Positions 24,876-53,705 of a DNA stretch of 64,000 nucleotides are shown here, in pieces (positions within the stretch are counted from its first letter, which is position 1; every line of letters starts with the position of its first letter). Source of the DNA: Fibrobacterota bacterium (lineage in GTDB: Bacteria; Fibrobacterota; Fibrobacteria; UBA5070); NCBI GenBank assembly GCA_029557215.1, contig JAKPQQ010000116.1, positions 10,103 to 74,102 on the forward strand, given 5' to 3'. A program made the position numbers and the translations under genes. The notes beneath the pieces are model-generated. The model made no database searches, was not told where the DNA came from, and saw only the letters and a program-made list of their open reading frames with translations.

Positions 24876-27800
24876 TCAATACTTCGGCTTGATGCGTGGA
24901 GTGCTCACGATCTTCATGTAGAGAAGGTTGCCGAGCCGTTTGTAGGCGTCCTCCAATCCGCCGAACGCGGTTTTCCCTCTCAATTTGATCACGTCTTTTT
25001 TGTCGTCGTCCGTGAGGTTGAACAAGGAAAGGCTTGCGATTGCTTTTGCGGCGATGGCGGGCTCCTTGTCTGGCTCGCACAGGTGTTCGTTGATCGGCAC
25101 TTCTCGGCGTTTCGCCTTGGTTGTTTCCAGGAAATAGCTTGGCCATCGCGTGTCGATGACGTTCTGGACGACGAATTCAAGCGGTAGAATGGACGACTTG
25201 CTGCCTCTGGGTTTGGGGACCTTGCAGGTGATGATCGAAGGCACGAAGGACTCGACCTTTCGAATCTTGTTGACTGCGTCCAATTTGTCCTTCTCGTCCG
25301 GATCCAGGGGCTTTTTCAGCACGCCGGTGCCGAATGGCTCGAGAGGCTGGTAACCCGAAGCCTCCACGCTGAATTTCACCACGAGAGTGTCGTCCTCGAA
25401 TGCCTTCACCATTTTCGATTCGAAATTCTTGAACATCGCACCTTGGCTGTTTTTGTTGGCTCTATCGGTAAGTGGCGTCAGATTCTGCCACGCATCTCCG
25501 GGGCCTCCGAGGCCGTCGTGGAGAAGATGGCCTCGGACGTAGTAGCTCTTTGAGCGGTCCTTGCGGCCGACGATCGTGTCCCAGTGAGCCCCTGCCGCGC
25601 TTGGAATGTTCGGACTCCCGAAACGCATCGAAGTCAACTTCTTCACGGTAGCGGAAGTTCCGAATCCACCCTTCAGTCCACCGAATACCGGGGGCGTTGA
25701 TGGTTCCTTGATCGACAGATCGTTCAGGACCTTCGCGGTCATTTTTGCGAGTTCCGCGACATCCTTGTCGTATTCCGCCTGCAACTTCTTCTGGTCGGCC
25801 GGTGCGAGCGGCTTTCCCGGCGAAGAAATCGATACCACGTTGTCATCGAGTTTCTTGGCCATCGCCAGCAAAGGATCCATCGCCGCGTCGGTCAACTTCT
25901 CTCCGTACTTGACTTTCAATGCCTTGAGGAAATTCGCGTAGATGATCGGCGTGGATTCGATCGTGAATTTCGCGGACGCGCCTTTTCCCCGCATGTAGAG
26001 GTGGTGGCGTTTCCCTTTCGCCGTCGAAAAGGGGCGCTTCCTTAGCCACCAGTCCGCTAGTCCAGCCTTGGCCTTCGCGAACAGCGCCTTGGCCGTCTTC
26101 GCGATCCAGGCGACCACCTTGTCCAATGCCGCGTCCACCTTGCCGCGGATCTTGGCGATCACGCCCATGATCTTGTCGGCGATCTTCCCCAGTCCCGCGA
26201 ATCCCATGAGGAAATTGATGGCAAGGCCCAACAGTCCCGCCAGGACGCTTTCCACCTTGGCCACCGCCGCTCCGATGTTGCCCGCGGCGATGGCCGCGAT
26301 GGAGTTGACAAAAGCCGTCACCACCTGGACGATCTTGGAGATCTTGCGCACGAACACCATGACGGTGTCGTAGATCGCCAGGATCGCCGAGATGAACCCC
26401 GCGCCGGGAATGAACATGGCCACCAGCCTGGGGATCGCCTTCTGCACGATCAGGCTCTTCACCATGTCCAGGATCCCGCCGACCACCATCTCCTTGAGGT
26501 TGCCCAGCTCCTCCTTGATCTTCTCCCAGGCGGCCGCAGGTCCGTCGCGCACCAGCGCCACCACGATGTCCAGCGTCTTTTCGATCACGGTCATGGCGGG
26601 TTCGCCGACCACCTTCGCGATCTTGCCGCGGATGATCTTCCAGGAAACGCCCAGCACCGACAGCACGAAGGTCACGAGCTCCTTGAGCGAGAACGACTTG
26701 GGGATGTACACGCCCGGAAGGCTTCCCGTGAGCCAGTCGATGAGCCCGGCCTGCAGGTGGGGCACGAAGTTCTTCTTGAACGCGTCGAACCCGCCGATCC
26801 CGGCCTTGACCAGGTTCTTCATGAACGGAAGCGGATTTTTCAGGATGGATTTCAGGGCCGCGCCGGTCTTCTTGATGTGTGCCCACGCACCCGGCGACAC
26901 GCAATCGAAGATGATCTCCAGGAGGTTCCAGATGGCGTTGCCCGCCCACGACGCGAACTGCAGCAGGAATCCGCCGAACACCTTGCCAACCTTCAGGAAC
27001 GCCTTGGGGAGCAGCACGATGTCCAGAAGCTCGAGCGAGGTGAACGCCTGCACGAACAACGACGGAATCCGCGAAACGAATTTCACCAGGTCGGTCGTGG
27101 CTCCCTTGAACCAGGCGAAGGCGCGCGGGATCGCGTTGGCCTTCTTCATGTTCTCCCAGACTTCGCCCTGTCCGATCAGGCGCAGGAATCCGCCGATCAA
27201 CGTTTCCGCGTCGCGGGGCACGGCCTCGCCGGTGATGGGATCCTTGCCCAGCACGGCGCAAAGGAGGTTCCAGCCTTCGGTCCCCTTGGCCAGCGCCCCG
27301 ATGGGCTTGAGGATCGCGTCCTTGACGAGCGTGACGAATCCTGTCACGAGTCCGACCACGAAGTCCTTGATGCGCGCGATGGGGCTGGTGAAGATCCGCT
27401 TGGCCCGGTTCCAGACGTCGCCCAGATCGAAGATGTCGCGCCACGACAGTCCGTCGATGAACTCGTCGAGCGCCTGCTTGATGGAACTCCCGATGTCGCC
27501 CAGCGCCTTGAGCTGGTTGTCCACCCACGCTCCGGCCTTCTCGAAGATCCCGTGGTTGTCCAGCGCCTGGGTGATCAACGCCCCGCCCGGAACGAACTCG
27601 ATCACGGCGCGCAGGACGTTGGCCGCGCTGCGGTCCACACGCGACATGTTGATCGGGTTGAACCCCATCAGGATGGTCAGCATCCGGAATCCGGGGATCA
27701 GGTTCGCCTTGTCGGCGAAGTAGTCCAGCGCGTCGGAAACGCCCAGGCGCTGGATGGCGGGAGCGGGGGTCCGCGAAACGGCCGGCGCCGCGGCCGTGGA

Positions 27801-28343
27801 CGACGCTTTTTGTTGCGCGCCGCCCTGCTGGATCGTGTGGGCCAGTTCGTGCGCGACCAACCGCAGTCCGTCGGGCGTGGAAGGCTGGAACGCGCCCCGA
27901 GCGAAGAACACGTGCGATCCCACCGTGAACGCCTGGGCGGAAAAGCGGTTGGACAACGCCGCGGCGCGCTCGTCGGTGTGGAACCTCACGCCCGAGAAGT
28001 CGGCGCCGAACTTGGCTCCCATGGAGCGCGAAAGCGAAGCGGGCATCGCCGATCCGCCCGACATCTCGGACTGCAGCATCGAGGCGTCGGCGGATCGCGC
28101 AGGGGATCCGGAGGCCGACGGCGCGCACGAGATCGCCACCGGCGCGCCGCTCGTGCTGGATCCCACGACCTTGTCGGCCACGGATTCGGCTTCGCGTTCG
28201 GCGGGGTCGGCGGCTTGGGACACGCGCAGGGACGATCGCTGGACGCGCGGCGAAAGCGGAGCGTGGAACGCGAACGACGGTTCGGGACCGCGCGACGGCT
28301 CGGGCCGACGCTGAACCGCCACGGTAGTGACGGATTCCGCCAC
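24876..28343 (-). CDS. CIS effector candidate: DUF4157 (eCIS core domain, HExxH zincin-like), long helical/hydrophobic region, and C-terminal putative His-Me finger nuclease; about 1155 aa
   Basis: Only the last roughly 1155 aa of ORF 24876..31118 is protein-like. In-frame GTG at 28343 (alternative 28322) lies just after the ATPase stop. DUF4157 block DPAEREAESVADKVV...FGADFSGVRFHTDERAAALSNRFSAQAFTVGSHVFFARGAF...LVAHELAHTIQQ. C-terminal motif YYVRGHLLHDGLGGPGDAWQNLTPLTDRANKN. Confidence 0.8.
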   Translation of the reverse strand: MAESVTTVAVQRRPEPSRGPEPSFAFHAPLSPRVQRSSLRVSQAADPAEREAESVADKVVGSSTSGAPVAISCAPSASGSPARSADASMLQSEMSGGSAMPASLSRSMGAKFGADFSGVRFHTDERAAALSNRFSAQAFTVGSHVFFARGAFQPSTPDGLRLVAHELAHTIQQGGAQQKASSTAAAPAVSRTPAPAIQRLGVSDALDYFADKANLIPGFRMLTILMGFNPINMSRVDRSAANVLRAVIEFVPGGALITQALDNHGIFEKAGAWVDNQLKALGDIGSSIKQALDEFIDGLSWRDIFDLGDVWNRAKRIFTSPIARIKDFVVGLVTGFVTLVKDAILKPIGALAKGTEGWNLLCAVLGKDPITGEAVPRDAETLIGGFLRLIGQGEVWENMKKANAIPRAFAWFKGATTDLVKFVSRIPSLFVQAFTSLELLDIVLLPKAFLKVGKVFGGFLLQFASWAGNAIWNLLEIIFDCVSPGAWAHIKKTGAALKSILKNPLPFMKNLVKAGIGGFDAFKKNFVPHLQAGLIDWLTGSLPGVYIPKSFSLKELVTFVLSVLGVSWKIIRGKIAKVVGEPAMTVIEKTLDIVVALVRDGPAAAWEKIKEELGNLKEMVVGGILDMVKSLIVQKAIPRLVAMFIPGAGFISAILAIYDTVMVFVRKISKIVQVVTAFVNSIAAIAAGNIGAAVAKVESVLAGLLGLAINFLMGFAGLGKIADKIMGVIAKIRGKVDAALDKVVAWIAKTAKALFAKAKAGLADWWLRKRPFSTAKGKRHHLYMRGKGASAKFTIESTPIIYANFLKALKVKYGEKLTDAAMDPLLAMAKKLDDNVVSISSPGKPLAPADQKKLQAEYDKDVAELAKMTAKVLNDLSIKEPSTPPVFGGLKGGFGTSATVKKLTSMRFGSPNIPSAAGAHWDTIVGRKDRSKSYYVRGHLLHDGLGGPGDAWQNLTPLTDRANKNSQGAMFKNFESKMVKAFEDDTLVVKFSVEASGYQPLEPFGTGVLKKPLDPDEKDKLDAVNKIRKVESFVPSIITCKVPKPRGSKSSILPLEFVVQNVIDTRWPSYFLETTKAKRREVPINEHLCEPDKEPAIAAKAIASLSLFNLTDDDKKDVIKLRGKTAFGGLEDAYKRLGNLLYMKIVSTPRIKPKY

Positions 28344-53091: not shown

Positions 53092-53705
53092 TTGCGGGCT
53101 CCTCCCGGGGCCGCGTACTCGAACGTGCGGTTCCTCACGAGGGCGCCCGATTCCATCGCGACCTCCGAATCGAGCAGGATCCCGCGCGCCACGTAGGTCG
53201 CCGACGCGGGAAGCCGCGGCTTGAACTTGTCCCAAAGGCCCAGCAGGTCGGCGACGGGAAGGGGATCGCAGACCAGTTCCACCGATTCGTGGGCCTGGAA
53301 GACCTGACCGGAAAACGTCGAGGCCGCGTTCAGCCGGTTGGCGTCGAAGATCGGCCGGTCCTCCAGGTGCCTGGCCATCCACCCCAGCAAGGCGAGCTGG
53401 CGCTCGGCGTCGGCCGCCCACGGGGTCGCGACCATGTGGACGTCCAGCGGAAGGCTCGGTCGGAACTTGTCGCCGTGGGCGTCGGTGCGGGGCGGCTGGC
53501 TGCGCATCTGCGCGTTGGGCGCGATCCTCCACGGGAACAGCGTGAAGCCTTCGACCACGGGGTCGGGCGGCGGCGTGGTGAACGATTCCGGCTGGTAGAT
53601 CCTGAACGCCGGCACCTGGCCCGCGAAGAGCTCGCGGGGACAGTGGTCCTCCAGGCTCCTCAGGAGGGCCTTGCAGACGCAGGATATCGCGGAAAAACGG
53701 GCCAT
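53088..53705 (-). CDS. DUF4255 / Pvc16-N-like tail terminator (cap) protein, 205 aa
   Basis: ORF in the track. First gene of the operon, as in many eCIS loci. N-terminus MARFSAISCVCKALLRSLEDH and the overall pattern resemble DUF4255 (from memory). GGAG RBS. Confidence 0.75.
   Translation of the reverse strand: MARFSAISCVCKALLRSLEDHCPRELFAGQVPAFRIYQPESFTTPPPDPVVEGFTLFPWRIAPNAQMRSQPPRTDAHGDKFRPSLPLDVHMVATPWAADAERQLALLGWMARHLEDRPIFDANRLNAASTFSGQVFQAHESVELVCDPLPVADLLGLWDKFKPRLPASATYVARGILLDSEVAMESGALVRNRTFEYAAPGGARN

Follow-up and report, generated by a model that had tools for sequence, protein, structure and literature searches.

Several contractile injection systems (CISs) that have been studied in detail operate from within the cell that produces them. 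The CIS of Streptomyces coelicolor (CIS-Sc; PDB entries 8bky/9gtp, subtype IId) is cytoplasmic, has neither fibres nor a gene for a tape measure, and fires only with the help of CisA, which is a bitopic membrane protein that has a periplasmic domain; the CIS of Halogeometricum borinquense (9ezm, clade IIa) sits on the cytoplasmic membrane and acts on contact as an 'archaeal type VI secretion system (T6SS)', a mode that correlates with a conserved membrane protein; and in Anabaena a transmembrane helix of Cis13 anchors the particle in the thylakoids. Here we analysed 64,000 nucleotides of a Fibrobacterota bacterium (contig JAKPQQ010000116.1; this whole stretch is called the window), in which a minus-strand locus at 24876-53705 (28.8 kb, 19-20 co-directional genes) encodes, with at least near certainty on the evidence of its gene families, a CIS of the superfamily that includes the extracellular CISs (eCISs). 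That identity taken jointly with the parts list and a nuclease cargo, leaving the delivery mode aside, is highly probable.

Among the sheath chains in the PDB, the main sheath protein of the locus (g3) was closest to two Streptomyces CISs (8bky/9gtp, E 2e-107; 8bl4/9gts, E 5e-105) and to the haloarchaeal system (9ezm, E 1e-106), followed by Afp3 (8e-51), the Anabaena thylakoid CIS (4e-48), Pvc2 (1e-47) and AlgoCIS (9e-46). By sequence similarity, the locus falls in the class-II part of the superfamily, nearest the Streptomyces and haloarchaeal systems. The likeness to CIS-Sc comprises the closest sheath and Cis11, a cap made of a single DUF4255 protein, a second gp19-type tube-initiator layer, the lack of a separate tape-measure gene, and cluster genes for an AAA ATPase and a DUF4157 protein; in contrast, CIS-Sc has no fibre genes and depends on CisA, whereas the locus encodes two fibre-like proteins, the 893-aa paralogue of the sheath and a membrane protein of another kind, the tail-anchored g10, and its uncultured Fibrobacteria host is diderm and not multicellular. 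The haloarchaeal CIS resembles it in the second-closest sheath and in having an eCIS-like cluster that owes its mode to an additional conserved membrane protein; however, that protein (Hbor_38620) is encoded outside the core cluster, in an archaeon with an S-layer envelope. Equivalents of Afp1-5, 7-9, 11-13, 15 and 16, a 3'-terminal toxin gene and several sheath paralogues are shared with Afp, PVC and AlgoCIS, but sheath matches to these run from E 8e-51 to 9e-25 and cover the C-terminal domain only, the cap gene is first here and last there, and an Afp14-type tape-measure gene is missing here. Three proteins of the locus (g2, g10 and g17) matched no chain of the solved particles among the PDB sequences.

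Gene content and relatives of the locus

The window is about 65% G+C, and raw lists of open reading frames (ORFs) are therefore full of spurious frames. We delimited the array by analysing G+C at third codon positions (GC3) and then mapping start codons, which gave a minus-strand series without gaps from an ATG at 53705 to a stop codon at 24876, the same boundaries that an earlier note on this DNA had drawn. All ORFs of the array are intact and show strong GC3 periodicity. A Joint Genome Institute (JGI) gene call on an identical sequence (metagenome 3300025740, contig Ga0208940_1001350) agrees with this array and adds a 56-aa ORF at 45749-45919; the identical sequence also occurs in Logan SRR5007356. 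The genes and the one spacer, in window coordinates, are as follows.

53088..53705, minus strand: g1, tail terminator/cap (Afp16/Cis16-like, DUF4255), 205 aa; Pvc16_N, E 1.1e-21
52309..53091, minus strand: g2, conserved protein, 260 aa; same-position relatives of 265-283 aa (Fibrobacterota, Ramlibacter)
50236..52287, minus strand: g3, main sheath (Afp2/Cis2-like), 683 aa; Phage_sheath_1 and 1C, E 7e-23 and 4e-15
49753..50205, minus strand: g4, inner tube (Afp1/Cis1a-like), 150 aa; Phage_T4_gp19, E 2.4e-36
47075..49756, minus strand: g5, enlarged sheath paralogue, 893 aa; phrog_23 tail sheath, E 3.7e-17, residues 29-884
46617..47078, minus strand: g6, second gp19-type tube protein, 153 aa; Phage_T4_gp19, E 4.2e-29; 30% identical to g4
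45922..46620, minus strand: g7, CIS_tube protein (Afp5-like tube initiator), 232 aa; CIS_tube, E 2.4e-24
45749..45919, minus strand: g7b, 56-aa ORF (Afp6/Cis6 position) from the JGI call; relatives of 54-56 aa
44679..45749, minus strand: g8, baseplate hub (gpD/Afp7-like), 356 aa; VgrG_rel, E 1.4e-20; phrog_52, E 8e-16
43972..44682, minus strand: g9, spike (gpV OB-fold/Afp8-like), 236 aa; Phage_base_V, E 4.1e-27
41987..43975, minus strand: g10, tail-anchored membrane protein, 662 aa, between the spike (g9) and gp25 (g11) genes
41583..41990, minus strand: g11, gp25-like sheath initiator (Afp9), 135 aa; GPW_gp25, E 1.6e-22
39290..41566, minus strand: g12, baseplate wedge, gpJ/gp6-like (Afp11/Cis11), 758 aa; Baseplate_J, E 7e-11; CIS-Sc Cis11 (9gtp_1K), E 1e-38
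36465..39290, minus strand: g13, baseplate wedge, gpI/gp7-like (Afp12/Cis12), 941 aa; Tail_P2_I, E 1.1e-7
34741..36468, minus strand: g14, fibre-like protein 1 (Afp13/Cis13 position), 575 aa; CIS13_fam at the N-terminus, E 1.1e-3
32108..34744, minus strand: g15, fibre-like protein 2 with a possible beta-helix C-terminal part, 878 aa; CIS13_fam at the N-terminus, E 1.3e-4
31762..32107, minus strand: spacer (ORF 'g16', 117 aa), 346 nt, GC 0.51, without GC3 periodicity
30274..31761, minus strand: g17, conserved protein, 495 aa; 36% identical orthologue in a second Fibrobacterota locus (L006)
28364..30277, minus strand: g18, AAA+ ATPase (Afp15/Pvc15/Cis15-like), 637 aa; AAA, E 8e-25, residues 427-551
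24876..28367, minus strand: g19, cargo toxin, 1163 aa; eCIS_core/DUF4157, E 7e-28, with HELAH at 173

With the most upstream starts chosen, 15 of the 19 gene junctions overlap (13 by 4 nt and two by 1 nt), a count to be read with the four or five starts that have close alternatives and are ambiguous; the pattern of 1- or 4-nt overlaps reported earlier held, and its count moved up from 14.

We scanned every gene of the locus, together with some 35 kb of flanking DNA, against Pfam and NCBIfam, and compared the locus proteins with PHROGs and PDB sequences. Profile matches upheld the DUF4255 cap, the sheath with its giant paralogue, the two gp19 tubes, the gpD hub, gpV spike, gp25, gpJ, gpI, AAA+ ATPase and DUF4157 protein that the earlier note had recognised, and the check it had asked for on sheath, tube, gp25, gpJ and DUF4255 gave significant matches in every case; the Phage_GPD match of the hub (E 1e-5) lies below the cut-off. 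A LysM domain, which the note had placed in the tube initiator, was not detected: the isolated C-terminal 73 aa of g7 had no Pfam match even at E<=1. The enlarged g5 has no Pfam match, and its sequence marks it as a true sheath paralogue, since its C-terminal ~200 aa match solved CIS sheaths among PDB sequences (E 2e-16), it is 29% identical to g3 at each end, and it has counterparts of 872 aa in Ramlibacter and 901 aa in Fibrobacterota. By analogy with the CIS-Sc structure, g6 would form the Cis1b-like tube-initiator layer. The wedge g13 matched 9gtp_E weakly (E 0.006), g7b gave no family match, and g2 gave none in Pfam, NCBIfam, PHROGs or PDB.

The locus thus combines a sheath and gp19 tube, gp25, Baseplate_J, spike and hub proteins, a DUF4255 protein, an AAA+ ATPase and a DUF4157 protein, with neither phage nor T6SS membrane-complex genes. 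The earlier note had called this combination the signature of an extracellular system. The trio of DUF4255, AAA+ and DUF4157 together with the full sheath, tube and baseplate set does assign the locus to the superfamily; because the closest sheaths belong to systems that are not extracellular, the signature marks the superfamily and not the extracellular mode.

Every structural part is homologous to a contractile phage tail protein and fibre-like genes are present, which would also suit a defective myovirus prophage or an R-type tailocin whose head and lysis genes were lost or lie elsewhere; the source genome is moreover a metagenome-assembled genome (MAG), in which genes far from the locus may escape view. 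We nevertheless regard this origin as very improbable. None of 50,697 phage genomes held a match to the g1 DUF4255 protein, and the closest phage sheath reached 32% identity over 56% of g3, whereas sheaths of bacterial CIS loci matched over the full length at 55-82%. Furthermore, an AAA+ ATPase and a DUF4157 toxin are part of the locus, the scans found no capsid, portal, terminase, integrase, holin, endolysin or repressor family in the 64 kb, and the same head-less order from cap to gpJ recurs in another phylum. A canonical T6SS (subtypes i-iii) would share the contractile sheath, tube, spike and gp25, and one relative of the locus has a T6SS_Tle1-like lipase nearby. However, the sheath is of the Phage_sheath_1 type and not TssB/TssC, the tube is of the gp19 type and not Hcp, a DUF4255 cap and a DUF4157 protein are present, and no TssJ/L/M, TssK, TssA or ClpV family, or any other T6SS family, was found by the scans of locus and flanks in the window; gene content already refutes this possibility, to which we give practically no weight. 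The earlier statement that the element is neither prophage, tailocin nor T6SS, made on the lack of head, lysis and TssJLM genes, is borne out by these scans and by the cap without a phage match.

The sheath has 5373 homologues. A tight group shares 73-82% identity with g3, two of its members being named Fibrobacterota MAGs, and hundreds more at 55-63% come mostly from Burkholderiales (Ramlibacter, Rubrivivax, Leptothrix, Aquabacterium, Variovorax, Caballeronia, Piscinibacter), with others from Methylomirabilota and Gemmatimonadaceae. We compared gene order from cap to gpJ in one Fibrobacterota locus (L003) and in Ramlibacter sp. USB13 (L005; JACORT010000003.1). Order and gene sizes are the same in both, including g2, the giant sheath paralogue, the 54-56-aa ORF and g10. 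In Ramlibacter the sheath is 58% identical, the sheath paralogue measures ~870 aa, the small ORF 54 aa, and a g10 homologue is present; unlike the window, which has no adjacent regulator, this locus has a sigma-54 activator gene (L005 6993-8060) just upstream of the cap. A scan with g18 found a single related locus in genome contigs, the second Fibrobacterota MAG (L006), and only an unrelated AAA protein in metagenome contigs, so that the downstream half was compared in one relative only; L006 keeps g13, g14, g15, g17, g18 and g19. Given the order shared with L003 and L005 and the genes kept in L006, the architecture with its odd features belongs to a widespread lineage and is not peculiar to the window. 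The surroundings differ (L003 1-7273 holds a T6SS_Tle1-like lipase, a Peptidase_C70/C39_2 protein and a GDSL lipase), and the genomic context of the island is thus not conserved between L003, L005 and the window.

The DUF4157 protein as probable cargo, and its putative transcription unit

The last gene, g19, encodes a protein of three parts. Behind the N-terminal eCIS_core/DUF4157 domain lies a long helical region that matches the tape-measure family phrog_1272 (E 4e-10, residues 301-792) and contains two hydrophobic segments forming a hairpin at 645-727, and this is followed by a C-terminal domain of ~360 aa (about 800-1163) whose coding sequence (24876-25970) has a GC of 0.51-0.57 against 0.61-0.73 upstream. 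Geller et al. 2021 described the typical eCIS toxin in the same terms, as an N-terminal DUF4157, a long linker and a C-terminal toxin.

We examined the C-terminal domain by profile, alignment and structure prediction. Its Endonuclea_NS_2 match (E 4.6e-4, 20.8 bits) is below the cut-off of 27. An exhaustive HMMER search recovered 378 relatives, mostly the C-termini of proteins of 1000-3900 aa, and a word-indexed homologue search two only; Endonuclea_NS_2 was found in all nine relatives tested (above the cut-off in three), and six of the nine start with eCIS_core. The family alignment has an invariant R..GH..N..N..E, with H947, N962, N971 and E983 in g19, which we take to be the DRGH-type ββα-Me nuclease pattern. 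The AlphaFold2 (AF2) model of the domain (predicted local distance difference test score, pLDDT, 87) gave NucA, EndA and Sda1 streptococcal nuclease structures as its top eight Foldseek matches and as its only significant folds, each with a probability of 1.0 and with a sharp drop thereafter, at target-normalised TM-scores of about 0.5 for NucA, EndA and Sda1. The predicted fold and the conserved motif together show the C-terminus of g19 to be of the ββα-Me nuclease type. The L006 orthologue is 71% identical over the full length, which is above the ATPase (60%) and the wedge g13 (56%).

A comparable division of parts has been described for the phage-tail-like particle (SLP) of S. lividans, in which Sle2, a DUF4157 protein, attaches to the Afp5-like tube initiator and is the partner of Sle1, a tape-measure-related cargo with a coiled-coil, a transmembrane hairpin and a swappable C-terminal module. 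By analogy, g19 looks like a fusion of Sle2 and Sle1, holding the DUF4157 domain, the tape-measure-related hairpin region and a C-terminal functional domain in that order; compared by description, it differs in being one fused protein, whose gene follows that of the ATPase at the 3' end, with a ββα-Me nuclease as its functional domain. Directly downstream of the g19 orthologue, L006 has an ORF of ~182-184 aa (15528-16076, plus strand) that by eye resembles an NlpC/P60- or CHAP-like wall hydrolase (C...GHVALYVG...LGGNQ). Its product might serve as a second effector or as an enzyme for release. The window lacks a counterpart of this ORF, and tblastx of the region gave compositional noise.

From solved relatives we infer how the particle would be built. 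Hub g8 and spike g9 would nucleate it, the tube-initiator layers g7 and g6 with the wedges g11, g12 and g13 would form the baseplate, and tube g4 and sheath g3 would polymerise onto that, with g5 probably a specialised ring or decoration and g1 capping the distal end. The ATPase g18 would help assembly or the loading of the cargo, g19. The DUF4157 end of g19 may dock on the tube-initiator/spike complex (g7/g6) and its helical region may sit in the tube lumen, where, as no separate tape-measure gene is present, it might set tube length. After firing, the hydrophobic hairpin would enter the target membrane and the nuclease would then degrade target nucleic acid, with the fibre-like g14 and g15 selecting the target.

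The earlier note had listed a tape-measure-like protein, which by position is the 495-aa g17. We rejected this candidate: g17 has no match in Pfam, NCBIfam, PHROGs or PDB, its middle region is rich in Pro, Ser and Arg and is not a long helical ruler, and its termini are probably folded; the tape-measure-like segment is inside g19. At the g17/g18 junction, ARAGORN called a tRNA-Ser(GGA) at 30281-30363 (minus strand), a likely false positive that lies within coding sequence, has no match to the Rfam tRNA model even at E<=10, and has no such call in L006.

The 117-aa ORF g16, earlier taken as a gene, is probably not one, since it lacks codon periodicity and has no counterpart in L006. The spacer that it occupies carries one of two promoter-like sites in the locus.

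53850..53879, minus strand: promoter-like site P1, TTGACA-N17-TAGGTTC, ~145 nt upstream of g1
32001-32030, minus strand: promoter-like site P2, in the g15/g17 spacer

P1 is kept at the orthologous position in L003 despite different upstream neighbours, and P2 is kept in L006; the sequence around the two sites is otherwise diverged. In the 64 kb, exactly two sites fit the pattern TTGACW-N17-TANNTTC, and both lie on the minus strand in the locus, an enrichment that is partly circular and a zero expectation that is overstated, because the pattern was derived from the recovered sites. As putative promoters, the two conserved sites suggest two transcription units, the structural genes g1-g15 and the ATPase/cargo genes g17-g19. 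The spacer also contains a hairpin of ~23 bp (31880-31930) and a 17-mer, GGGTTCGAATCCCTTCC (31823-31839), that equals the tRNA T-arm consensus and is common to L006, in whose spacer (8183-8438) the segment 8299-8357 folds as a mini-tRNA-like cloverleaf. No spacer sequence was above any Rfam threshold, with chance-level miRNA- or mascRNA-like matches only; the 17-mer and hairpin may represent a small RNA, a signal for processing or the relic of a tRNA.

Membrane protein g10, fibre-like genes and the site of action

We then considered where the particle would act. Release by lysis followed by extracellular action would be the likelier mode, an assessment that we make with moderate confidence. 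The same machine could instead be held at the cytoplasmic membrane of its producer by g10 and fire outward in the manner of a T6SS, like the haloarchaeal system, or into the producer's own envelope under stress, like those of Streptomyces and Anabaena; we think this rather unlikely.

The g10 protein carries a hydrophobic helix of ~40 residues at its C-terminal end (609-649). In the family alignment, this helix and the preceding 100 residues are the best-conserved part, with many invariant positions. Searches of Pfam, NCBIfam, PHROGs and PDB gave no family or sequence match, and the AF2 model (pLDDT 73) had no Foldseek match in PDB or BFVD. There are ~297 full-length homologues, all annotated as 'hypothetical', in Fibrobacterota, Burkholderiales, Methylomirabilota and Verrucomicrobiota (38% identity to the Ramlibacter one), and the gene lies between the spike and gp25 genes wherever its context was seen. 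By analogy with CisA, Hbor_38620 and the transmembrane helix of Cis13, g10 could hold the baseplate to the producer membrane or trigger it there; a role in assembly, or as a membrane-active component that is ejected, would be equally plausible. Compared by description, g10 is tail-anchored, whereas the transmembrane segment of CisA lies mid-protein and is accompanied by a periplasmic domain, and Hbor_38620 has six transmembrane helices. It is the chief unexplained feature of the lineage.

Several findings weigh against extracellular release. The three closest solved sheaths belong to two Streptomyces CISs and the haloarchaeal 'T6SS', all non-released systems; the S. coelicolor and S. venezuelae machines are cytoplasmic and work with CisA, and the sheaths of Afp, PVC and AlgoCIS are matched at 8e-51 or weaker. 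The non-extracellular mode goes with a membrane protein or transmembrane segment encoded in the cluster in three systems that have been studied, and here a conserved membrane protein lies within the baseplate gene block, kept across phyla with its transmembrane helix as the most conserved part. The Pfam/NCBIfam scans found no lysis gene in or adjoining the locus. Two further absences bear on the explanation as a whole: the scans found no regulator in or next to the locus, and no immunity gene follows g19, for which the window leaves no room (many eCIS toxins have none, according to Geller et al.).

The weakly fibre-like g14 and g15, whose N-terminal CIS13_fam matches reach 18-21 bits against a cut-off of 370, are indirect evidence for release. 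Of the two fibre-like proteins reported earlier, the Afp13 position stood, and fibre identity is carried by weak, sub-threshold matches only; the Beta_helix match of g15 (E 2.5e-3) is likewise below the cut-off, and no DUF6519 or other anchor Pfam was found in either protein. Their N-termini are 24% identical to each other (E 0.008). Orthologue identity to L006 is 44% for g14 and 29-36% for g15, and GC falls to ~0.58 over the 3' half of g15 (32108-34000). CIS fibres are known for conserved N-terminal anchors and variable C-termini. The weak CIS13-type N-termini, poorly conserved C-termini and local GC drop fit putative exchangeable receptor-binding modules, and the GC drops over the g19 nuclease and the g15 3' half together fit horizontally exchanged toxin and receptor-binding modules.

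Against a tethered machine stand these two fibre-like genes with diverged C-termini, where CIS-Sc is without fibres, together with the unlike architecture of g10 and its alternative roles. Furthermore, Fibrobacteria are diderm and the locus encodes no trans-envelope components. A further proposal, for which we see some grounds but which we hold to be doubtful, is that the operon type, which occurs in Fibrobacterota, many Burkholderiales, Methylomirabilota and Verrucomicrobiota, represents a distinct diderm CIS mode, in which g10 would tether or trigger the baseplate at the cytoplasmic membrane, the particle would act from the producer, either like a T6SS or suicidally, and the g19 fusion would be both ruler and cargo.

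Chromosomal setting and significance

The chromosome on either side of the locus offers neither phage nor lysis functions. The genes that border the locus are the following.

24065-24874, plus strand: HAD hydrolase, convergent with g19 and ending 1 nt from it
53938-57546, plus strand: surface protein, 1202 aa, with a FISUMP domain above the cut-off

Beyond the HAD hydrolase, the flank continues with a metallo-beta-lactamase-fold protein, chorismate synthase, transketolase and trigger factor, and the carbohydrate-active enzyme (CAZyme)-type genes of the flanks comprise two GH5 cellulases with carbohydrate-binding modules, a rhamnogalacturonan (RG) lyase, a SASA esterase and an expansin-like protein. 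The chromosome is thus ordinary on both sides, with housekeeping and CAZyme genes, and the Pfam/NCBIfam scans confirmed the earlier description of the element as bounded by a HAD hydrolase and a surface protein and free of head, integrase, lysis and TssJLM genes. The Fibrobacteres-like host named in that description was also right, since an identical sheath in NCBI comes from a MAG named 'Fibrobacteria bacterium'; the FISUMP domain of the surface protein agrees with it.

Two side observations concern the flank on the HAD side. A low-GC island at ~14500-16000 (0.50 against 0.65), probably gained horizontally, contains by eye a PIN-domain (VapC-like) ORF (15207-15611, minus strand), an AbrB/SpoVT-like antitoxin ORF (15608-15841, minus strand) and a 234-aa ORF (14518-15222, minus strand) for a possible membrane or lipoprotein without an NCBIfam match. 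Four copies of a ~76-nt intergenic repeat (13572-13647, 16293-16368, 16758-16833 and 16951-17026; core GACCACCCCGTCCGGCTTCGCCGTCCACCCCTCC) look like repetitive extragenic palindromic (REP) elements and yield spurious ORFs with the peptide 'GGRQSRTGWS'.

The operon type is common in cultured Burkholderiales, and the locus is a routine member of a large, catalogued superfamily with thousands of known clusters: Geller et al. counted 1,249 genomes with eCISs, a later study 1,129 MAG loci, and the core genes of this locus are already annotated in public records. The literature that we searched links CISs to names beginning with Fibrobacter only in passing, in line with the earlier remark that none has been characterised in this group, and held nothing specific on a characterised Burkholderiales system of the same type.

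The lineage carries conserved proteins without an assigned role (g10, g2 and g17), and its gene content does not tell its mode of action; the 'eCIS signature' is present, yet the closest studied relatives all act from inside the cell. As the operon occurs in cultured Burkholderiales, the question of mode is directly testable. Fibrobacteria are specialist degraders of plant fibre, and in communities that break down lignocellulose an injector armed with a nuclease could shape how members compete or prey on one another.

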